A stretch of 64,000 nucleotides of DNA from a virus. The notes beneath the pieces were generated by a model that searched no databases, was not told the DNA's origin, and saw only the letters and a program-made list of their open reading frames with translations. Shown in pieces: positions 4,851 to 62,261 of the stretch. How positions within the stretch are numbered: the first letter of the stretch is position 1; every line of letters starts with the position of its first letter. The position numbers were made by a program, and so were the translations under genes. The stretch spans positions 32,001 to 96,000 of IMG/VR virus record IMGVR_UViG_3300045988_085724. One strand, written 5' to 3'.

Positions 4851-7800
4851 TTAATTGTATGATTGTCTAAATTTGGTTATTATATGTGATATTGCATGAT
4901 CATTGTCATTACTATTCATCAACAGTTCTTCTATCATCCATTTACCGCGTAATCTACGAATTCCATCTGCACACCTTGGTATCGGGAAGCATATATTTCC
5001 TTCTCTATTTGTATATTTATCGATCATTCCAGCTTCATCTAAATCTGTATAGAGATTGCAGTTGAAATTATCGTAATCAGCAGTTTGTTTAGTATGACTA
5101 GAAGTCGTATTATATAATTGCGGGAAGACTATTTGCTGATTATCAAATACTTTTGTAACTGATGCATTTGGATTTACTACAAAGTTCAATCTGGCTGTAT
5201 CATCAGTTGTTGGAGTTTCGCCATCATTACACCAACGTGTATATGATGCAAAATTAGATCTTATCGAAATTGCATCAGTCTGATTTGTTAAATTATTATA
5301 TACTGTAGCTAATTGTCCATTTAACACATCATACATAGACTACGCTATACCTAATTTGCAGTTAAATGCTAATGTCATTTCCTCACTTAAAATAGCGTTA
5401 TTTTTAATTGGGTGAAACAATAATTCATCGTTAATTGTGTCGTATGTAATTGTAGGTACTTGAGTATCGCCATTAATGTTTATCTACATTAGTGTCTTTA
5501 CATTACAATTTTCCGTAAAGTCTAATACTGACATTTTAGTGCTACCATATGCGCCAGATGTAGCTTTGTATGCTGCAATACATTTATTGCCGTAATCAAA
5601 CCAATATATATCGTTATCGACATTTACTTTACACATATCTTGTGCCCTCATTCCAAACTTGGTACTTAAGTAGTCAGATCTCTGCAATACAGTTCCTTGT
5701 CCCAGTTGTATAAGGTTACTATTTTCATCTTTAACAAGTGAACGCTCATTAACAGATAACTTACCAAATGCTTTAGTTTGCCAGAAATACAATGTATCTT
5801 GTGTAGTAAATAAATCAGTTAATTCTCCGTATATTGGGTTAACGTCTATGTAATCCACAGGTTTAAATATATTCCAACTATTTAAAAGTTCTCCGTTAGT
5901 CTTTAGTTGTGAATAACATATTCTTTGTGTATAAGTATTCTACAGATATGTAGTGCTCTATGGAGAATATAAATCGTTACTGGTTCCGTTGTCAGAATAA
6001 ATAAGGTTATATTGATGTACTGGTCTATCTTGTGAAGTTACACCCTTTATTTCACCAGCTTCAGCTTGTAAGTTAGCGTTATTTGTATTACGATAATTCA
6101 TTCCATAATCGAAATACTGATTGATAGTACTTTCCATCGGAATATAATGTATTGTCTGCATAGACTGCAATGAACTCTTATCGTCATTAAAGTCATACGC
6201 TTTATACATGCCTTCGATCTCATATATCTGTGTATACATATCACCTGTAAATACGCTCATCTTATTGATGTCATTTTCTCCTAAAGAACATGCTTTATAA
6301 TCACCAAATCCATAATACGTATCATATTGCTTAGACGACATATCTTTACCAGAATAGTGTATAGCAGGATGTGTGATCTCACATAGAAGTGTTCCCGGAT
6401 AACTATTTAATTTAGATACTTCTTCCGGATCTTTAGAATTTACTTGAGGGTCGAATGATGGTATTAAAATTCCACCTAAAGCCGATGGACTGTAATAATT
6501 TGTTATAGGATTGGTCGTTATTACTTCTCCAAAAATATATTTTAGACTGTGAGATTTTATTATTCCCCCGTTCTACGAATCTATTAATTTGCCCAATTGT
6601 TCTCTATCATCAGATAACTATATTATCAAACACCTTGCGGCAGGACCGATTGGCCCAATAGAAGGGAAACTCCTGTGTTCATGGTTACCTGAATTCTCAA
6701 CGTTTGTAAATTCAACGACATCCTTCCATGTACCTTCTGTCCATCCGAATTCATTATTTGTCCCTACAGGAATATCATATTTACTACTACAAACCCAATT
6801 CAAATAACTAGACGTAGATATATTTTTAGCATATGATTTATATTTCTTTACAGCGTTACTTATTTTACTTCCATCCATGACATGATTAGAAAAACCATCC
6901 TCCCAATTAAGCATTCTTACGTTTGATATTTCACGTATCTACATAGAATAATTATTTTGGTTCAGATTAAATTTGGTATCTTTTGTAAACTAAACATTAT
7001 CTATGTCTACTTTGTATCCGGAATTTATATTGTTAGGCCTCAATACTGGCTCACCGTTGTCATATACAATTTTATTATCAGAATCTAGCATGAAAAATCG
7101 CCTAGAATATACAGTATTTGCTGAGTATAAGTACGACAATTTATTTACCTTATTGGATTTGTCTGATTTTGAATAACTTAACGCTTTATAATTTACATTT
7201 GTATATTTGCCAAATGTATAGCTGTATTTATCAAACCCGTCACTACTAAAATCTATAACAGGAACAAAACTTAACGAAAATATATGTGTTTTTTGTATCT
7301 AGTATGAGGCGACAGCACACTTAGACGTATAATCATCATATGCATCATCATTTGTAAATCTTACTATATCTGTTTCGGTTGGAGAATACAAATACAAAGC
7401 GGGCGTTAATGATATTTGATTTGTTTTAAGTTTGTTTAACGTGTCATCCACATACGTCTGTATCTCAGGGCAATATACCTAATATAGTCTATTATCAGAC
7501 GCACCACTAGTCATTTGTTCTGGCCATTGTGTTGCATTGCCATTCGGATATGGAGTATATCCTATATACTAAGGATTACTTATAATAAATCCTGTAGGAT
7601 AATATGGAGAGTACGTACCATCAACAAGTTTCTGTCTAACGGTACTTGCTATTACAACCTGTTGCAGTGATCTAGAATATTCATCTGTACGTTGACAACG
7701 TACTATTTCGTATCCGCATATGTGGTTTGTATTAGCAAAATCTTTAAATGCATCATTTAATGTAAATTCTATACCGATTTGTATTGTGCCTAATTCGTTT

Positions 7801-41401: not shown

Positions 41402-42179
41402 GCAATCAGCAGAGATTTGTAAAACACACGGTTATACATTACAAGATATCTATAAAGATATAGAGCGTGCTGCTAGAGTATCGTATAAATCTGAAGACAA
41501 GATAACTGAAGATAGTGCTGAAAAGATGGTTGAACGCCTCATAAATATGAAGCATTATAGTCCATTAGAGTTTGGTACTGTATATCTTGAAATTGACGAC
41601 ATAGATAAGGTTCAAAAATACATAAATAACCCATATTCAAGAGTAAGCGGAAATTGCTATGTAACAACTAACTATAGAGTTATAATAGAAAATCATTGGC
41701 AACAAGATCTTAAATACTTAGTAGAACCTACTAGATTTCATATGCGTCGTATAACAGCTCATTTCATAACAAACAGAGCTGTATCACATGAATTGGTGCG
41801 TCATAGATCTATGTCGTTTATGCAAGAATCACAACGCTACTGTAACTACTCTAAGGGTAAGTTCAATAATGAATTGACATTCATATATTCTGTATCAATG
41901 TACAGTGAAACTATATCACTGCATAGTGAAAATAGTTACGTAGATTTTCTTACTGCAGCAGAAAATAAATACATGGATCTTATAGATAAAGGATGGAAAC
42001 CACAACAAGCACGTATAGTATTACCAAATGCTACTAAAACAGAGCTATATATGTGTGGATTTGAGGATGATTGGGATCATTTCTTTGACTTAAGAGATAA
42101 AGACGTAGTAGATCCTCAGATGTATGATTTAGCACATAAATTACATTTAGAATTCATAGAGAAAGGTAAATGCAAATGA
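41388..42179 (+). CDS. thyX: FAD-dependent thymidylate synthase
   Basis: Contains the ThyX motif RHRSMSFMQESQRY plus the ...HYSPLEFG... block. Confidence 0.85.
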   Translation: MKLIEQSAEICKTHGYTLQDIYKDIERAARVSYKSEDKITEDSAEKMVERLINMKHYSPLEFGTVYLEIDDIDKVQKYINNPYSRVSGNCYVTTNYRVIIENHWQQDLKYLVEPTRFHMRRITAHFITNRAVSHELVRHRSMSFMQESQRYCNYSKGKFNNELTFIYSVSMYSETISLHSENSYVDFLTAAENKYMDLIDKGWKPQQARIVLPNATKTELYMCGFEDDWDHFFDLRDKDVVDPQMYDLAHKLHLEFIEKGKCK

Positions 42180-42343
42180 AAAAACAATTAGATGAAACTG
42201 AGCGTAATAGAATGCTCAAGTTAATTGATGAAGCTAAGAAACGTGGAGAAGACGGAATAGCTAGTATGCTACAATTAGCTATAGATCTTAGTGATAAAGG
42301 GGAATACGATAAATTCATACAAATATTTAGTGAAAATGATTGA
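42176..42343 (+). CDS. small hypothetical protein (55 aa)
   Basis: ATGA overlap with the thyX stop. Ends TGA, overlapping the next ATG. Confidence 0.4.
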   Translation: MKKQLDETERNRMLKLIDEAKKRGEDGIASMLQLAIDLSDKGEYDKFIQIFSEND

Positions 42344-42539
42344 AACGTTATTACAATTGTCGGTCATAATTGGTATAGGTTTCTTTGTCGCCTGGGTAGT
42401 ATCTCCAGATAAAAACGTAGAAACATATAGGAAATATATTAAAAATATAATCGAATCTATCATAACTGACGCATTTAGTTTATATCCAGACCAGAAAGAT
42501 GCGATAATATATATTAGAAAGAGATTATTGGGTAATTAA
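42336..42539 (+). CDS. small membrane protein
   Basis: Starts MIETLLQLSVIIGIGFFVAWVV.... Followed by a terminator. Confidence 0.5.
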   Translation: MIETLLQLSVIIGIGFFVAWVVSPDKNVETYRKYIKNIIESIITDAFSLYPDQKDAIIYIRKRLLGN

Positions 42540-42543
42540 TATA

Positions 42544-42580
42544 ATCCGGGTTAGCCTAGCTAGCTCGGATTTTTTATTTT
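42544..42580 (+). terminator. rho-independent terminator
   Basis: ATCCG...CGGAT hairpin followed by TTTTTATTTT. Confidence 0.6.
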
Positions 42581-42761
42581 TATTTTTTAAAATTTTTTAT
42601 TTTACAGGCATATAAAGAGGAAACAAAAAATTTATTTTATGGACATAAAAAGAGGAAACTCTATTGGTTAGTCCCCCGGGATGTTTTAGCGGATGGAAGC
42701 ACCCCCACCTAAACGTTCCAGACTCCGAATACTGAACCAAGTCAGATTAAAACTTAAAATT

Positions 42762-42938
42762 ATGAGTAGATTGGATTCTTTCTTGTTTGTAGTGATAGCA
42801 TTCGGCATATTGCTGATGTATGTAATCACAATGATAGACATCGTTGGATTTGGGGATAAGATATTATTCACAATTGTCTTCTTGCCAATGATTGTGGTTT
42901 GCCTATACATACTAAAAGAAGTATGGAGTAACAAATAA
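42762..42938 (+). CDS. small two-TM membrane protein
   Basis: Starts MSRLDSFLFVVIAFGILLMYVITMIDIV.... Internal ATG of track ORF 42693..42938. Confidence 0.5.
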   Translation: MSRLDSFLFVVIAFGILLMYVITMIDIVGFGDKILFTIVFLPMIVVCLYILKEVWSNK

Positions 42939-42978
42939 GCTGTGTGGTGTGCACGTCATTTGGCGTGTGCACTTCACA

Positions 42979-42994
42979 CTTAAACTGTCCATAC
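42979..42994 (+). promoter_or_regulatory. conserved intergenic motif CTTAAACTGTCCATAC (copy 1 of 5), putative phage promoter element
   Basis: Lies 52 nt upstream of the ATG at 43046 and directly after a hairpin. Confidence 0.5.
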
Positions 42995-43045
42995 ATACTA
43001 CTCTAATCACATGCAATATTGCACTAACATTAAATTAACAAACAT

Positions 43046-43366
43046 ATGCTTACATTACATCAATTCACAGCCTATTGCAAACGTCATAACCTCACTGCCG
43101 TAGTCATGTCGGCAACGTTCATGATACATAACGACGAATGCATTGGCGAAAGTATAAAACTCTCACAAGACGACCCCAATTCGTATAAAAAGCATCAAGA
43201 AGGTTTGCTCACATACGACACTGTTCGCATGCTGTCTCCAGCTGATGCATACGACAAATTGCAGTATGCATTCTCAACTCCCGAAGATCTCGTAAAAGCA
43301 CACATGCATTCATTAATGCCTAAGCGTGCCGTATTCTCAAACAACGTCGAAGACCTTCCGTTCTAA
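43046..43366 (+). CDS. hypothetical protein
   Basis: Intact ORF with a TAA stop, its own motif and a hairpin. Confidence 0.6.
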   Translation: MLTLHQFTAYCKRHNLTAVVMSATFMIHNDECIGESIKLSQDDPNSYKKHQEGLLTYDTVRMLSPADAYDKLQYAFSTPEDLVKAHMHSLMPKRAVFSNNVEDLPF

Positions 43367-53105: not shown

Positions 53106-53575
53106 AAGCTCGATTCATAAATTGAATTCAGATCATAGAACCTTTGAGTCACATGATTACGTGGAGGGGGAAGTTAACGCTTGGGATCTGGCATTATGCT
53201 TCAGTTGCGGAACACCACGAGACATGAATTGACATGTCATACAGAGCCTAGAGCCAGTTATGAATTCAGATGCCGAACTTACGGTAGTTTAAATATAAGT
53301 CACATGATCAAAAGAATTGAATCTTAGCGAGTCATTGGAGCCTCGACAAGGTTAGCATTGGTTAACTACGTCGACTGAGATGTAAATCAAAAATGTTGAA
53401 AGCGACATGCAAGAGTCTTAGAACCAGTCATATCACCGCTTGTATTAAGCCAAATAAAGCCGTTTTAAAGCGTTATTAATCGATTGTGAAGTAGCTAATC
53501 ACATGAGACCAAATAACGTCTTAAAACGGCTTAAAACAGGCTTAAATCAAATGTTCTATCTGATCAATAGAACAT

Positions 53576-53641
53576 TTACAAAGAATAATAGCATGTATGA
53601 GGTAATTTACGAAGACGAGGGTTCGAATCCCTCATGGTCCA
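53576..53641 (+). ncRNA. tRNA-like 3' module (T-arm plus acceptor 3' strand); candidate acceptor piece of a permuted tmRNA-like RNA
   Basis: Reads ...AATTTACGAAGAC-GAGGG-TTCGAAT-CCCTC-ATGGTCC-A. It is immediately followed by the GTCT-ACAT-AGAC hairpin and a T-run. Confidence 0.35.
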
Positions 53642-53642
53642 C

Positions 53643-53661
53643 GTCTACATAGACATTTTTT
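53643..53661 (+). terminator. small hairpin plus T-run
   Basis: GTCT-ACAT-AGAC followed by ATTTTTT. Confidence 0.4.
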
Positions 53662-53719
53662 CATAATAAGGAAAACTATCGCCAATGTGGTTCGTGAGAA
53701 TAGCATTGGTTTTTAACAA

Positions 53720-53857
53720 GGGCCATACTGGATTTGATTCGTAAAGGAAGTAAATACGTTAAGTGCTACTATATAAATTCAACTGGCAACTATAATGTTG
53801 TAGATTACACACATGTAGCATGAGTGTAATCTGAGTGTTTCCTACTAAAGTGGAGGA
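53720..53857 (+). ncRNA. candidate coding piece of the tmRNA-like RNA (5' GGGCCAT-ACTGGATTTGATTCG...)
   Basis: GGGCCAT pairs with ATGGTCC (53634-53640), giving G3.U70 and A73. The 5' string resembles tmRNA GGGGCUGAUUCUGGAUUCGAC. A possible tag frame is GGC AAC TAT AAT GTT GTA GAT TAC ACA CAT GTA GCA TGA at 53785..53823. Confidence 0.3.
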
Positions 53858-53905
53858 AGATGTAATACGATAGGCGTACATTGTGGTTCGAGTCCACTAC
53901 ATCTA
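53858..53905 (+). ncRNA. mini tRNA-like element (acceptor stem, short hairpin, T-arm; no anticodon arm)
   Basis: Reads AGATGTA-A-TACG-ATAGG-CGTA-CATT-GTGG-TTCGAGT-CCAC-TACATCT-A. Confidence 0.4.
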
Positions 53906-53989
53906 CGAAATTTATTTGTCTATTGTTTATGAAAAGTTATTAGAGTAGTAGTGCACGGTTCGTGAGAATAGTGCATTTTTAATTTGATT

Positions 53990-54881: not shown

Positions 54882-54990
54882 GCAGCACCCGTGTCTCCAA
54901 AGAGAGTAGTGTTTAATCACAACACGGGACATTATGAGCACCGTCTCTTACGTCAGTGACAGACTAATAACCGGTTAAAATTTGTTGATT

Positions 54991-55545
54991 ATGAAGAATC
55001 CTAAGATTACCCAAGAGGAGATTCGTCTAATCAAGGACGCAAAGGCTGGAAATATACTAGCCTTTAATAAACTTTTTTATCGCTATAAAGGCTTCGTAGA
55101 CAATGTGCTGTATCAGTACATTAAAGACTACGATGAAGCGAAGGACATTACTAATATAGTATTCCTTAAAGTTTATGAAAAACTCTCGACTTTCGTAGAT
55201 TATGACTCTTTTGGAGGATGGCTACGAATTATTGCTAATAGAACGGCTATAGATTACCTGCGTAAAATCGGGGACAAAAACAGAATGCTTGGAGATAACG
55301 ACAACAAAGTGTCACTGGAACAAATAGATTCTACGGAGCACGATGCGGTCAATCGAATTACGTATGAACAACTATTGAAAGAGTTTGACCGACTCAATCC
55401 AGTTCACAAGCAAATATGCCTGTTATTCTATAAAGATAATCTAACGGTTGATCAAATTAGCAAAACTTTAAACATTTCACCTGGTACGATTAAGTCTATA
55501 CTTTCTCGTACGAGAACAAAAATCATTAAACGCTTTAAACAGTAA
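54991..55545 (+). CDS. ECF-type sigma-70 family RNA polymerase sigma factor
   Basis: Region 2-like: ...FNKLFYRYKGFVDNVLYQYIKDYDEAKDITNIVFLKVYEKL...GWLRIIANRTAIDYLRK. Region 4-like: ...LTVDQISKTLNISPGTIKSILSRTRTKI. Confidence 0.8.
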   Translation: MKNPKITQEEIRLIKDAKAGNILAFNKLFYRYKGFVDNVLYQYIKDYDEAKDITNIVFLKVYEKLSTFVDYDSFGGWLRIIANRTAIDYLRKIGDKNRMLGDNDNKVSLEQIDSTEHDAVNRITYEQLLKEFDRLNPVHKQICLLFYKDNLTVDQISKTLNISPGTIKSILSRTRTKIIKRFKQ

Positions 55546-55975: not shown

Positions 55976-56033
55976 ACTACTTGTATACCACAATGAGTTC
56001 ACAAGTTATTAACATTAAAAACATTTATCAAAA

Positions 56034-57496: not shown

Positions 57497-57931
57497 ATGC
57501 GAAAGTTAACAACAATCCTATGCAGCATTGCCTTTGCATTATCAGGTATTTGCCTGGCAAAGATAACAACTGCTAATTCTTCAACATCATCTCAAGTTAT
57601 GGCAGCTACTATGCCTGATATTAACTTGAATGATATAAAGTTGCCTAAAGACCTTACATTAGATCTACAGCAACAGGATAGTATTCGTTCACCCGGCAAA
57701 CCGGATACTGTCTACTTAGAAAAGCCGGAAGTAAAAACCAAAAAATCTAAGAAGGTTCGCGCACCTCGAAGAGTAGCAACGAAGACAGTCCACGTCCCAG
57801 TTGTCTATCTAATAACGCGTATGGATAACAAGGAAGACTCCATTGGTCATGATAGCCTACCGATCTACAAAGTAGAAAAAGTAGGAAAAATTGATCTAAA
57901 AAAGTTCAATTCCTCCATAGATATTAATTAG
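57497..57931 (+). CDS. secreted or lipoprotein candidate (stop codon TAG)
   Basis: Starts MRKLTTILCSIAFALSGICLA.... Ends TAG at 57929. Confidence 0.6.
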   Translation: MRKLTTILCSIAFALSGICLAKITTANSSTSSQVMAATMPDINLNDIKLPKDLTLDLQQQDSIRSPGKPDTVYLEKPEVKTKKSKKVRAPRRVATKTVHVPVVYLITRMDNKEDSIGHDSLPIYKVEKVGKIDLKKFNSSIDIN

Positions 57932-60104
57932 TATTTTAGTTTTGGATTGTGCAGTTATGCGCTACATGATCCAAAACCTATGGGTAAGTACTTATAGTAG
58001 GTCTCATTAGCCTATGTACGAAATTTATACTTGATCCGAGAATATGTTAGCCGTCTCAAACGGTGAGATCACTCAAAAGGTAGGATGAAATGCATTGTAT
58101 ACTGAAAATATATAATGTAAGTAGGATTAGCGCTGTATCAGATCCTAGAAACTATATAACTGGACTTGTGAGAACCGATTGGAGACAAGCTGGATGAAGA
58201 AGTATGGTTTTGAAACGCATAAGTCTCAAAAAGAGCATAATGAACCGTATCGGAATTATATTCAATGATACTAAGAATATACGAACGACACACGAGATGA
58301 AACATATCTATTAATATCGAAAACTTATATTGTGGGAAACTATATACATGGTATGGTATAGTTTGCAATGATATCAGTATAAGACGAGAGTAGATGACCA
58401 ACCGTAGATATGAGTATCACAAAAATAGCTGTAGCATAGTGTTCCTTGGTTCCAACCCAAGTATGAAGGTGTGAAGAAAATACACAGATTGTTCTATATC
58501 ATAAGGATAATACTTATGAAGTGTATCGTAAATATGCTGTCTATGTAAATCCCTGCTGTTAGATTCAGCACATCTCCGTTGAAGGGGAGCCAGTGATGGG
58601 GTAAAACGACTGATACAAGATGAAGTGTGACCGACAGGCTTTTGTAGTTTATCGGTATATAAAAGAGAAACTACCAGGAGGGTAGGGCAGACCCTTAGTT
58701 AGGTTATGATGATTGTATATCATAATCTATGCGCGATACGAGGCCGCGAACAAAGTCTGATATGAATACACTAAGTTCAGTAAGCAGAATGATGTGTATT
58801 GGACATAGTATAAAAAACTATGCCGATTCCGGTGATTACGTTATAATCGAAAAACTCTTGATCAGAGAACAGATCATTTACGTAAGTCGATTCGACACTG
58901 TACACACCAGTACTGCATGAGATCGCTTTCGTTTCAAGACAGATGATAGTTAGAAGGTTCAACTATGTATACATATATTACAGTCCCTGTGGGATAGAAT
59001 CCGTTATACTGTAACTGCGTATGCATTTTGAAATAAGGTACTTCTTACAAAGATAAGTCAGCGATAAAATTAAGAATTAACATGTTTAACAAAAATTAGG
59101 TGTCCCCAGATAGCGAAAAACCTACGTTGTAAGTAGGGAGTAGTGAAGTCTGAAGCCTGAGTACCAACCGTTATATGTAACCAGAACTAAAGTATGGACA
59201 GCAAATCCATGCGTAAACTCTAAAGGTAGGCATAATACATGGAAATGATGGGCAGCTTTAAGGAGCTATGAGACGCAGTGCAATAGCGTATGCAGGTGAT
59301 GTATCGAAAACATCTCTTACTATCCACTGTCTCTGGATGTGTAAGAAACTCTTAAAGTGGGTGACAAGTGAAAGTGTATGAGTTGAAATCTCAATATTCG
59401 TGTACTATAAATAAATGAGGTAGAAACACCAAGAACAGAAAGTCCGTAGGATCGCAGATACCCCCTGAAGGCATAGATCGTTCGATAACGAAACGCACTC
59501 CTTGCGTAAACAGCTACACACGCACGTAGTAAATAGGAAAACCGTCAACAGGACATCCTCAGACGTAAAATTCAGGATGCGCGAGCAAGCGGCTACAGCT
59601 TGTATGAATAGATTTGTAGTTAAAATAGGGAAACTGTCAAAGATATTCAAAGACATTGTGGGTTAAGATACATATTGCGCATTAGTCCAATTGGAAATTT
59701 TGCCGATTGTCTAACAATCAGTATCAAGAAGCGTACGGAAGATCTTCGTACAATATTTATCTATAAATAAATATGACATCATACATAAACGTAGATGTCT
59801 AAAACAAGATTGATTTCTTCATAGCAGCATTCAAAGCTTTACCAAAATACAGACGATGGGCTTAGCTAATCATACCGTTTGATTCCCGTTGCGCAATTGA
59901 GCTTCATTTTAAGGAATATAAAACACAACTATATCTGTATAAAGCGTGGTTCCCATTAGCACACCAACTGTATGCAAGCAATATATTTAACATAAATACA
60001 CCTAAGTGACTCTCCGAAGCAGTGTATTTTCTTTTTTTAATTAACATTATTAACAAAAAATATCGTTGGTTTAATCAAAAACGATATCAAAAAGGATATT
60101 TTTT

Positions 60105-60713
60105 ATGGCAACAACAACAATTAACGTAAATGTACAAAACGCCCTGTCGGGCAATCGTAACCCTATCTCATTGATGGGTGCTAACCTTGGTAAACAATTC
60201 TTCACAACAGAGGTCCGCGACTGTTGGCCCAACTTTGAGAAGGAAAAGAACGCTATCCAGATGAACGAGCAGAAGACGCTGATCACTAATCGTTCACCTC
60301 GTCGCTATCGTATTAACGCTAAAGATATCTATGGTATCATAATCGATACCGATATCAATAACAATCCGGTGATCAAGATCAATCCCCATAAGGACGGTCT
60401 TGCTGATGCCATCATCGCAATCTCTTCAGACATGAAGGATTACGGTGTAGTAACCGAAGAGGCTGTCAAGGAGGCATTGAAAAATGCCAATGATCCTAAC
60501 TCGACGGCGACACACGCATTCAAGGATCCGCAGAAGCTGATCCAGTTTATGAATGCGCTTAATCAGAGTGAGTACGAAAGTATTCAGACTCTGATCGATG
60601 CTCTCTGCAAAATGCAACAGAGTATCAAGTCAGCTATGGCTGATAACACAAAGAAAGTAAACGACTATATGGAACAACTCAATAGTCGTGTGGACATTAA
60701 TGTTCATGACTAA
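60105..60713 (+). CDS. hypothetical protein
   Basis: Intact 202-aa ORF, GC-richer than its surroundings. Confidence 0.65.
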   Translation: MATTTINVNVQNALSGNRNPISLMGANLGKQFFTTEVRDCWPNFEKEKNAIQMNEQKTLITNRSPRRYRINAKDIYGIIIDTDINNNPVIKINPHKDGLADAIIAISSDMKDYGVVTEEAVKEALKNANDPNSTATHAFKDPQKLIQFMNALNQSEYESIQTLIDALCKMQQSIKSAMADNTKKVNDYMEQLNSRVDINVHD

Positions 60714-62141: not shown

Positions 62142-62261
62142 AATAACTCTGACTCGGTGTGAAGGACCTTATAGGTAACTATAATTACAGATCGTGGCTG
62201 TAACGAGTCACTTCCCTTTTTCTCTAAGTAATAACATGTTTAATTAAAAATCATTATCAAA

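Follow-up and report, generated by a model that had tools for sequence, protein, structure and literature searches.

Large, intricately folded RNAs are rare (ribosomal RNA (rRNA), RNase P, group I and group II introns, OLE, GOLLD, and ROOL), and every class added so far has either brought unfamiliar RNA biochemistry to light or stays a prominent open problem. GOLLD is roughly 800 nucleotides (nt) long and ROOL roughly 580 nt. The Suoliviridae, the crAss-like phages considered here, are among the most abundant phages of the human and animal gut. GOLLD and ROOL form homo-oligomeric, RNA-only cages as seen by cryo-electron microscopy (PMC12286853). Among the crAss-like genomes of the human gut, the Suoliviridae form the largest group (Yutin et al., 2021, PMC7886860). 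The same study reports that self-splicing group I and group II introns are frequent in delta and zeta crAss-like phages, and it notes, but does not explain, regions of crAss-like genomes that are poor in open reading frames (ORFs) and hold short ORFs of mixed polarity. Here, we describe such a region in IMGVR_UViG_3300045988_085724, from which a stretch of 64,000 nt (hereafter, the window) was analyzed. The window belongs to a crAss-like phage (Suoliviridae, Oafivirinae), and the feature studied is a gap of 2173 bases (57932-60104) bounded by ORFs at 57497..57931 and 60105..60713. The gap is very probably the locus of a conserved structured RNA of a new family. A first-pass annotation, made from the letters of the window, had raised the possibility of a very large structured RNA, and this idea is borne out by conservation, a lack of codon periodicity, and abundant compensatory changes.

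Covariation in the Consensus Fold

Full-length homologues were dereplicated to 26 representatives (<93% identity) and aligned. On the plus strand, RNAalifold gave these 26 representatives a consensus fold of -290.6 kcal/mol with 261 pairs in 56 helices, compared with -33 to -39 kcal/mol for column-shuffled alignments. At the 261 pairs, 90.3% of alignment cells can pair; in slid controls, with the 3′ partner moved by 1-3 columns, 35-44% can. Changes on both sides of a pair were found at 160 pairs (903 cells), versus 74-93 pairs (147-203 cells) in the slid controls. The pairing signal is present in every conserved block and not at one spot, and most predicted helices have several pair types per position. 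Examples of helices that covary throughout are 58257-58263/58275-58281 (7/7 pairs), 58977-58984/59008-59015 (8/8), and 59192-59198/59206-59212 (7/7). The alignment shows about 50 of the predicted helices to be kept by compensatory substitutions. Hairpins seen in a single sequence are unconvincing on their own, but the relatives show conservation and covariation far beyond those of the controls.

The locus has the features of the descriptive class of "ornate" large non-coding RNA (ncRNA), as it exceeds 500 nt, is non-coding, and has many compensated helices together with conserved unpaired junction nucleotides. Conserved heptaloops recur (GUUGUAA, CUGUCUC, UACCGUU, and AGGGCAG), as do long invariant junction strands. 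The individual hairpins listed in the first-pass annotation all exist, two of them at slightly different places: the GTTTTGGAT/ATCCAAAAC hairpin lies at 57939-57977 rather than 57945-57985, and GTACG...CGTAC at 59733-59751 rather than 59743-59761. A third, CTACC-AGGAG-GGTAG, is present at 58671-58685 but is probably not part of the native fold, because in the comparative fold CTAC pairs with an upstream GUAG (58642-58653/58665-58676) and AGGGU with a downstream ACCCU (58678-58682/58692-58696).

Selection on Nucleotides and Coding Potential

The gap is non-coding. Under the standard code, open stretches in the six frames reach 93 codons at most; with TAG read as sense the longest open frame is 134 codons, and with TGA read as sense it is 228 codons (minus strand, 58015-58698). 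No ORF spans the gap with TAG, TGA, and TAA reassigned singly or in pairs, and the lengths of stop-free runs are those expected for random sequence of the same composition. It had been proposed from the letters alone that the segment between the two flanking ORFs does not code and that reassigning TAG rescues no ORF; both statements hold under every code tested. The late or structural genes on the minus strand at 1-36 kilobases (kb) have long ORFs only with TAG as sense (36 frames of at least 200 codons in 1-36000, versus 20 with the standard code); on the plus strand, at 38-64 kb, genes are read in the standard code. This recoding of late genes does not rescue an ORF in the gap. None of the four transfer RNAs (tRNAs) of the window is a suppressor, so a suppressor tRNA must be encoded outside it.

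As stated in the first-pass annotation, the plus strand of the gap is rich in purines (56%, with GC skew up to +0.21 and AT skew of +0.09 to +0.24), and it holds no repeat array according to a search for inverted and direct repeats; no tRNA was found within it either. The same annotation had described the gap as richer in GC than its flanks, which is incorrect: GC by windows is 0.33-0.43 (mean 0.37) in the gap, versus 0.38-0.47 upstream and 0.39-0.45 just downstream.

Compared with the relative cr130_1, the gap has 74.4% nucleotide identity, with mismatches spread evenly over the three phases (145:140:154). Eight of ten neighboring coding sequences (CDSs) are less conserved (55-69%), and only the sigma factor (78%) and a 181-amino acid (aa) gene (76%) equal it. 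Most of the ten show an excess of third-position mismatches, whereas the gap has no codon periodicity. The adjacent proteins of 202 and 455 aa are 57% and 40% identical to their cr130_1 homologues, respectively, and 24-34% and 27-32% identical in more distant genera, for which the gap DNA retains 68-70% identity over an aligned 37-48%. Over all relatives compared, the ranges are 24-57% and 27-40% for these two proteins and 68-75% for the gap DNA, over an aligned 16-98%. These comparisons show the gap to be evolving, as judged from its substitution pattern, under purifying selection as nucleotides and not as codons. Because its conservation exceeds that of real genes, it is not decayed DNA.

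Parts of the Structured Region

The predicted parts of the region, all on the plus strand (+), are as follows.

57939-57977 (+), P0, a long hairpin: GUUUUGGAU...AUCCAAAAC, beginning 8 nt downstream of the TAG stop of the 144-aa gene; apical loop region UUAUGCG
57985-58025 (+), P1 hairpin: GUAC...GUAC and UAGG...CCUA, nearly invariant loop GUCUCAUUAGCC
58026-58100 (+), domain 1 core: helix 58031-58037/58083-58089 enclosing invariant GAGAAUAUGU and CAAAAGGUAGGAUG and a hairpin, 58051-58054/58060-58063
58103-58310 (+), rest of domain 1: hairpins 58122-58147, 58223-58236, and 58257-58263/58275-58281; invariant single strands UGAGAACCGUCUGG (~58166-58182), ACCGUAUCG, and ACACGAG
58311-58430 (+), variable linker or expansion segment: conservation 0.31-0.41, many gaps, zero consensus pairs
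58431-58770 (+), domain 2: hairpins 58444-58461 (CUUGG-UUCCAAC-CCAAG), 58499-58519 (9-nt loop GGAUAAUAC), 58520-58538, 58554-58570 (T-loop), 58571-58589, and 58678-58696 (loop AGGGCAG); junction helix 58642-58653/58665-58676
58771-59080 (+), domain 3: hairpins 58775-58790, 58833-58849, and 58977-58984/59008-59015
59081-59500 (+), domain 4: multi-helix, with the most invariant blocks (UUUAACAAAAAU, UGUCCC, GAGUGCCAACCGU, GAUGGGCAGC, AGUGGGUGACAAG, AUAUUCGUGCACUAUAAA, GCCGUAG, GUUCGAUAA); helices 59107-59152, 59192-59212, 59255-59260/59353-59358, 59321-59339 (loop CUGUCUC), and 59360-59406
59445-59484 (+), irregular helix of domain 4
59501-59806 (+), poorly conserved segment: conservation 0.27-0.51
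59754-59775 (+), AU hairpin: AUAUUUAU/AUAAAUAU, in relatives AUGUUUUA/UAAACAU
59807-59945 (+), domain 5: hairpins 59807-59820, 59868-59884 (loop UACCGUU), and 59888-59929; closing helix 59836-59840/59941-59945
59994-60038 (+), 3′ hairpin: closing stem AAAUACAC...GUGUAUUU (59994-60029), then UCUUUUUUU
60058-60104 (+), element in the 5′ untranslated region (UTR) of the 202-aa gene: hairpin CGUU..AUCAA..AACG and A-rich AUCAAAAAG within an outer helix

Further invariant blocks of the RNA are UGAGAACCG, GUGCCAACCG, GUGGGUGACAAG, and UUCGUGCACU.

P0, which was detected as an inverted repeat, probably marks where the structured region begins on its 5′ side. One relative (L008) keeps it through compensatory changes, and in other lineages the site is taken by a hairpin that differs in sequence, several of these with a conserved YWUGCGCU apex. 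In P1, the pairs 57997-58002/58010-58015 covary at 6/6, and the outer stem covaries by eye (GCAC/GUGC, GCAUUC/GAAUGC, UGACA/UGUCA). The gene just upstream (57497-57931, 144 aa) ends in TAG, and its homologue in the RefSeq record of cr131_1 is annotated as 45 codons longer, running into P0 and P1 (57932-58063); this extension is probably an annotation artefact, produced by applying the recoded table to an early gene. The N-terminus of the 144-aa protein, in a translation read by eye, resembles a signal peptide or lipoprotein leader.

Compensatory changes were found in 11/13 pairs of the domain 1 core, where a loop UCUCA and a UGAGA form a candidate pseudoknot; conservation in the rest of domain 1 is 0.70-0.75. 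Separate alignments of domain 1 and of its core gave the same covariation picture. Domain 2 has 64 pairs (91.7% paired versus 43% slid), 40 of them with compensatory changes. In an independent MAFFT alignment of this domain (A6), 91.6% of cells paired versus 35-42% when slid, with a covariation score of 0.504 versus 0.06-0.12, and none of 500 shuffles reached the observed value on four of five measures, while 6/500 did so on the count of further pair types. Domain 3 is lower in sequence conservation, and 18 of its 20 pairs have compensatory changes (88% paired versus 33% slid). The corresponding numbers are 38 of 77 pairs in domain 4 (89.7% versus 35%) and 18 of 23 in 59801-60045 (90.5% versus 41%). 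Both strands of the irregular helix in domain 4 (GCCGUAG and GUUCGAUAA) are invariant.

The first-pass annotation had found no T-loop in the gap, but two T-arm-like hairpins with covarying stems are present. One, at 58554-58570, reads CUGCUG-UUAGAUU-CAGCA and has the loop UUCGAUU in most relatives; the other, at 59377-59393 within helix 59360-59406, has the loop UUGAAAU and appears in relatives as GGG-UUGAAUU-CCC. A further hairpin, 59733-59751 (GTACG...CGTAC), is followed by a weak T-run and is terminator-like, and is specific to the window lineage.

Synteny and Distribution Among Relatives

With the 2173-base gap as query, the full length was matched at 97.8% identity in cr131_1 (NC_055902, Cacepaovirus simiae, from rhesus macaque faeces) and 98% of the length at 75% in cr130_1; weaker matches were found in cr7_1, cr124_1, cr272_1, cr273_1, a Bohxovirus, and the lemur "Dulem virus 42." An extracytoplasmic function (ECF)-type sigma factor (54982-55545, plus strand; PHROG 1740, E=4e-25), encoded ~2.4 kb upstream of the RNA locus and conserved throughout the Suoliviridae, served as synteny anchor. 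In all relatives inspected, the gene order is the sigma factor, a small protein, a protein of ~455-500 aa, one of ~130-190 aa, the ORF-free gap, a protein of ~200 aa, one of ~180-190 aa, and, after a few kb, DNA polymerase. This arrangement is common to the Oafivirinae, Loutivirinae, Uncouvirinae, and Boorivirinae, with gaps of 1.9-2.5 kb at the following lengths, the first six of them being from the Oafivirinae.

cr131_1: 2037 nt
cr130_1: 2025 nt
cr7_1: 2171 nt
cr124_1: 2162 nt
cr272_1: 2223 nt
Bohxovirus: 2189 nt
Dulem virus 42: 2116 nt
cr4_1 (Loutivirinae): 2147 nt
cr53_1 (Loutivirinae): 2125 nt
cr56_1 (Loutivirinae): 2152 nt
cr118_1 (Uncouvirinae): 1920 nt
cr115_1 (Uncouvirinae): 2205 nt
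cr10_1 (Boorivirinae): 2076-2456 nt

No ORF under any code was found in the gap of the window or in six other Suoliviridae gaps, all of which are 55-57% purine. Small ORFs are annotated inside some gaps, namely a minus-strand ORF of 160-168 aa in cr7_1 and the Bohxovirus and eleven tiny ORFs in Dulem virus 42, and none of these is common to the relatives. An intact gene at this place in relatives, which the first-pass annotation had named as a sign that the window carries a decayed copy, was not seen; instead, four subfamilies have an ORF-free gap of the same size in the same place. A chain of collinear similarity links the gaps (window to Loutivirinae, Loutivirinae to cr115_1, cr115_1 to cr10_1, and cr115_1 to cr118_1; blastn, nhmmer), and the conserved landmark AACAUGUUUAA is present at the equivalent position of the cr115_1 gap.

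A profile search with the flanking protein failed to find more loci, as this protein is too divergent, and further loci were found with DNA patterns drawn from conserved blocks of the RNA. A model of the domain 1 core (R1) matched 31 further contigs at 52-93 bits (26 viral contigs and 5 from metagenome-assembled genomes (MAGs)), as well as cr4_1, cr53_1, and cr56_1. A model of part of domain 4 (R2) detects the 59318-59416 part in the Loutivirinae cr4_1 and cr53_1. In DNA pattern scans, the domain 4 motif was found in 84 IMG/VR viral contigs and the domain 1 motif in at least 120 stretches; R1 was run on 32 of these that were new and did not match 6. Most contigs bearing a motif are 90-106 kb long. 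In the bacterial genome collection, the element was found in the five MAG contigs, and the other 8 of 13 pattern matches are chance, unconfirmed by R1. Two contigs of ~101 kb with the element, JAJWOH010000001.1 (L096) and JAJXAL010000002.1 (L108), were binned into Segatella copri MAGs and are evidently whole phage genomes; the binning is a weak hint at a host in Segatella/Prevotella or the Bacteroidaceae.

Strand, 3′ End, and the Element Before the 202-aa Gene

The signal favors the plus strand, which is the strand of all genes at 38-64 kb. Fold energy of the alignment is -290.6 kcal/mol on the plus strand versus -259.6 kcal/mol on the minus strand, minimum free energy of the first kilobase as a single sequence is -235.5 versus -211.2, and among the 171 pairs predicted on both strands the ratio of G-U to A-C is 213:115. 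The purine richness of the plus strand is a fourth line of evidence in the same direction. A scan of the region for sigma-70 promoters gave results not above shuffles.

The terminator-like 3′ hairpin (59994-60038) is the possible 3′ end of the RNA. Its closing stem covaries (AUACAC/GUGUAU, GCAC/GUGC, AACAUU/AAUGUU, CAUCC/GGAUG, GGUGC/GCACC). It is parted by an AU-rich, non-conserved spacer, which in the window lineage holds a promoter-like repeat (60039-60062), from the UTR element. This second element is very conserved and unique in the window, with 12 pairs (95.8% paired versus 33% slid). Its outer helix, formed by nUAUC (60059-60064) and GAUAn (60095-60100) 4-9 nt before the AUG, covaries as AUGUC/GACAU, UUUUC/GAAAA, CUUUC/GAAAG, and UUUAC/GUAAA, which points to control of translation of the 202-aa gene at the RNA level. 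These last 47 nt (60058-60104) would form a separate cis element that is predicted to pair the region upstream of the AUG and probably controls translation.

Searches with the flanking proteins in PHROGs, Pfam, and PDB sequences were empty. The 202-aa protein has only 19 homologues, none of them named or with a Pfam domain and several of them on contigs of phage length (~95 kb). Its AlphaFold model is poor (predicted local distance difference test score (pLDDT) of 63.6) and had no fold match at E<=0.001. The short contigs that encode this protein are metagenomic and not transcriptomic and are therefore uninformative on expression.

One RNA or Several, in Trans or in Cis

The gap probably encodes, in one gene or in several closely packed ones, a structured ncRNA of very large size that belongs to a new family present across the Suoliviridae. 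It would be transcribed rightwards with the early/middle module, from P0/P1 (57939-58025) to the hairpin and U-run at 59994-60038, and is predicted to fold into at least five domains; these are rich in heptaloops and in long, invariant strands at junctions, and they include two T-loop-like hairpins and a conserved irregular internal loop. By analogy with GOLLD, ROOL, and OLE, which are thought to act in trans rather than as template or leader, such RNA is likely to act in trans during infection, most probably as a ribozyme or at the core of a large particle, either RNA-only or ribonucleoprotein. That 57.94-60.04 kb gives a single RNA of ~2.1 kb with a catalytic or machine-like function can be put forward tentatively. 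Such a molecule might be a ribozyme or the core of a large RNA or ribonucleoprotein machine required for infection, for example engaging tRNAs or the translation apparatus via T-loop modules, which would fit the tmRNA-like gene (see below), the tRNAs, and the recoding of TAG in this phage. Collinearity and a constant length in four subfamilies favor one unit. A single RNA of this length would, if real, surpass all structured non-ribosomal RNAs known from phages, and it would be universal in the Suoliviridae.

Several points weigh against this proposal. The 20 predicted pairs that span >200 nt are without compensatory changes; as they never vary, covariation neither supports nor refutes them. 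An all-against-all covariation scan found no long-range helices above its parallel-strand control, and no covariation ties the domains into one molecule. R1 and R2 find no Uncouvirinae or Boorivirinae gap, and homology there consists of short collinear matches. The strand call rests on moderate asymmetries, and the predicted ends of the transcript are guesses. The stem of the 3′ hairpin is weak (-5.3 kcal/mol) and interrupted by a large internal loop, a terminator consensus scan did not call it, and the U-run UCUUUUUUU, present in the window lineage and some others, is absent in several lineages. Neither a partner protein nor a catalytic motif was identified for the gap RNA, so the role as particle or ribozyme is an analogy and not a result. 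Two long-range inverted repeats, 58056-58069/59869-59882 and 58474-58490/60017-60033, were considered and rejected, as alignments inspected by eye show that their pairing is not kept in relatives.

It is conceivable, if somewhat doubtful, that the locus holds several independent adjacent RNA genes with their own promoters and ends, e.g., at 57.94-59.07, 59.10-59.75, and 59.81-60.04 kb. The lack of covariation support for long-range pairs would be expected in this case, as would the poorly conserved linkers (58311-58430 and 59707-59806), and the same plus-strand module is rich in small RNAs (tRNAs, hammerheads, and the tmRNA-like gene, with RAGATH-9, RAGATH-20, and Hatchet in relatives). The T-run hairpin at 59733-59751 and the conserved promoter-like AACAUGUUUAACAAAAAU at 59079, which resembles the region upstream of gene 62262, also speak for this reading. 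However, the hairpin is specific to one lineage, and the 59079 motif is not general upstream of genes in relatives and is predicted to pair within domain 4. Moreover, the blocks are collinear and total 1.9-2.5 kb in four subfamilies, with no part lost or shuffled.

A giant cis-acting leader of the downstream replication operon (from the 202-aa gene to DNA polymerase), controlling read-through or translation, is an unlikely reading of the locus. It lies immediately upstream of this operon on the same strand, the terminator-like hairpin and U-run (59994-60038) could attenuate transcription, and the last 47 nt covary and pair the sequence right before the AUG. Yet these 47 nt are split from the body by the non-conserved AU-rich spacer, with the promoter-like repeat 60039-60062 in the window lineage, and the body is more conserved than the gene it would regulate. 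A length of 2 kb, ~50 conserved helices, and many invariant junctions are also far beyond known bacterial leaders.

Less probable still is a replication origin, acting as a DNA element or through a priming transcript as in ColE1 RNA II or the transcription-primed origins of T4 and T7. While the gap is ORF-free, conserved, and located in the replication/early module ~4 kb upstream of DNA polymerase, it has no iterons, direct-repeat arrays, or AT-rich unwinding block, and there is no switch of GC skew. Compensated hairpins with a bias of G-U over A-C fit RNA rather than duplex DNA or protein-binding sites, and the size and number of conserved helices exceed those of known primer RNAs.

That the gap codes after all, as a decayed pseudogene, a gene with an exotic code or broken by an intron, or a set of small proteins, is scarcely credible: the annotated ORFs of cr7_1, the Bohxovirus, and Dulem virus 42 and the 228-codon frame opened by TGA (minus strand, 58015-58698) are not conserved in relatives, the phage recodes TAG and not TGA, substitutions are without codon periodicity, conservation above that of real genes is the opposite of decay, and no group I or group II intron signal was found.

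Other RNAs and Signals in the Same Module

A permuted, two-piece gene resembling transfer-messenger RNA (tmRNA) is located at 53552-53914 (plus strand; core 53584-53823) and was called by ARAGORN as tmRNA* with the tag GNYNVVDYTHVA. The Rfam model tmRNA_permuted scores 40.5 bits in the window (gathering threshold 47) and 50-71 bits at the syntenic site of cr130_1, cr7_1, the Bohxovirus, and cr10_1, and relatives carry a tmRNA annotation in RefSeq. Two RAGATH-1 hammerheads (46475-46581 and 48880-48949, plus strand, 67-68 bits) end 111-140 nt upstream of tRNA genes (Met 46721, Gln 49060), a position that suggests ribozyme processing of transcripts containing tRNAs. The same plus-strand module contains RAGATH-9, RAGATH-20, and Hatchet in cr56_1 (L172:1726-1883, 2530-2627) and cr10_1 (L174:4240-4366, 5219-5397), so these orphan metagenomic motifs occur in Suoliviridae phages. 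Two additional gaps of ~0.9 kb in the window (42179-43046 and 47210-48102, plus-strand module) have no ORF of at least 100 aa and no Rfam match at gathering threshold, and might hold more unrecognized RNAs.

Many plus-strand genes are preceded by the context TTAACA...(A-rich)...UAUCAAAA-AUG, e.g., at 51500-51532, 56000-56033, and 62228-62261. This context is likely to mark promoters or translation initiation in the early/middle module. The plus strand also has four copies of a related 18-mer, AACATGTTTAACAAAAAT, versus 0.37 expected.

Comparison With Known Systems

The RNA locus occupies 2% of the genome, and public annotations leave it blank or fill it with spurious small ORFs. Its recognition should improve the annotation of crAss-like genomes, and it comes with a deep natural alignment for an RNA structural target of ~2 kb. 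Should the RNA turn out to work in translation or in the takeover of the host, it would also bear on the persistence of these phages in the gut. No description of a large RNA in Crassvirales was found in the literature searched. The gap is a case, in the Delta group (Suoliviridae), of the ORF-poor regions noted by Yutin et al. (2021), who report no RNA structure, and a structured RNA would account for it.

Rfam 15 was searched at gathering threshold over the whole window, at E<=10 with relaxed filters over the gap, and at gathering threshold over ten related loci. The gap has no match at gathering threshold, whether to GOLLD (RF01998), ROOL (RF03087), OLE (RF01071), or any other family, and at E<=10 has only junk matches to small nucleolar RNAs and microRNAs at 12-17 bits; nothing matched inside the homologous gap of the ten related loci. 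The first-pass annotation had named GOLLD, ROOL, and OLE as families to compare with, and the likeness turned out to be one of kind and not of membership.

Like the gap, group I and group II introns are large structured RNA segments that break up the dense coding of phages in this group. An intron was rejected here, as there is no match to Intron_gpI, Intron_gpII, or group-II-D1D4 at E<=10 and no homing-endonuclease or maturase ORF, and both flanking ORFs are complete in all relatives, each with a start and a stop of its own and each conserved separately, and are not exons of one gene. OLE, raiA, and HEARO/omega RNAs were recognized in the same way as this locus, from covariation and conserved internal loops within a long intergenic region. 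Unlike it, they are cellular or transposon-borne and measure 200-650 nt, while the gap is without an Rfam match. No gene like those for Oap or IsrB adjoins the gap; the flanking proteins have no match in Pfam, PHROG, or PDB.

The nearest likeness is to GOLLD and ROOL. These RNAs differ from the gap RNA in host lineage (here crAss-like phages) and in their covariance models, neither of which the gap matches. With its ~2.1 kb, the gap RNA would be ~2.5-3.5 times as long, going by the approximate lengths given at the outset. GOLLD and ROOL are often adjacent to tRNAs, whereas the nearest tRNA of the window (49060-49131) lies 8.8 kb upstream of the gap; in cr4_1, the Bohxovirus, and cr115_1, a tRNA is found 1.3-3 kb downstream of it. 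In common with GOLLD and ROOL, the gap appears to encode a very large, multi-domain, non-coding phage RNA with many covarying helices and invariant junctions, which lies in a region of the genome rich in other RNA genes.

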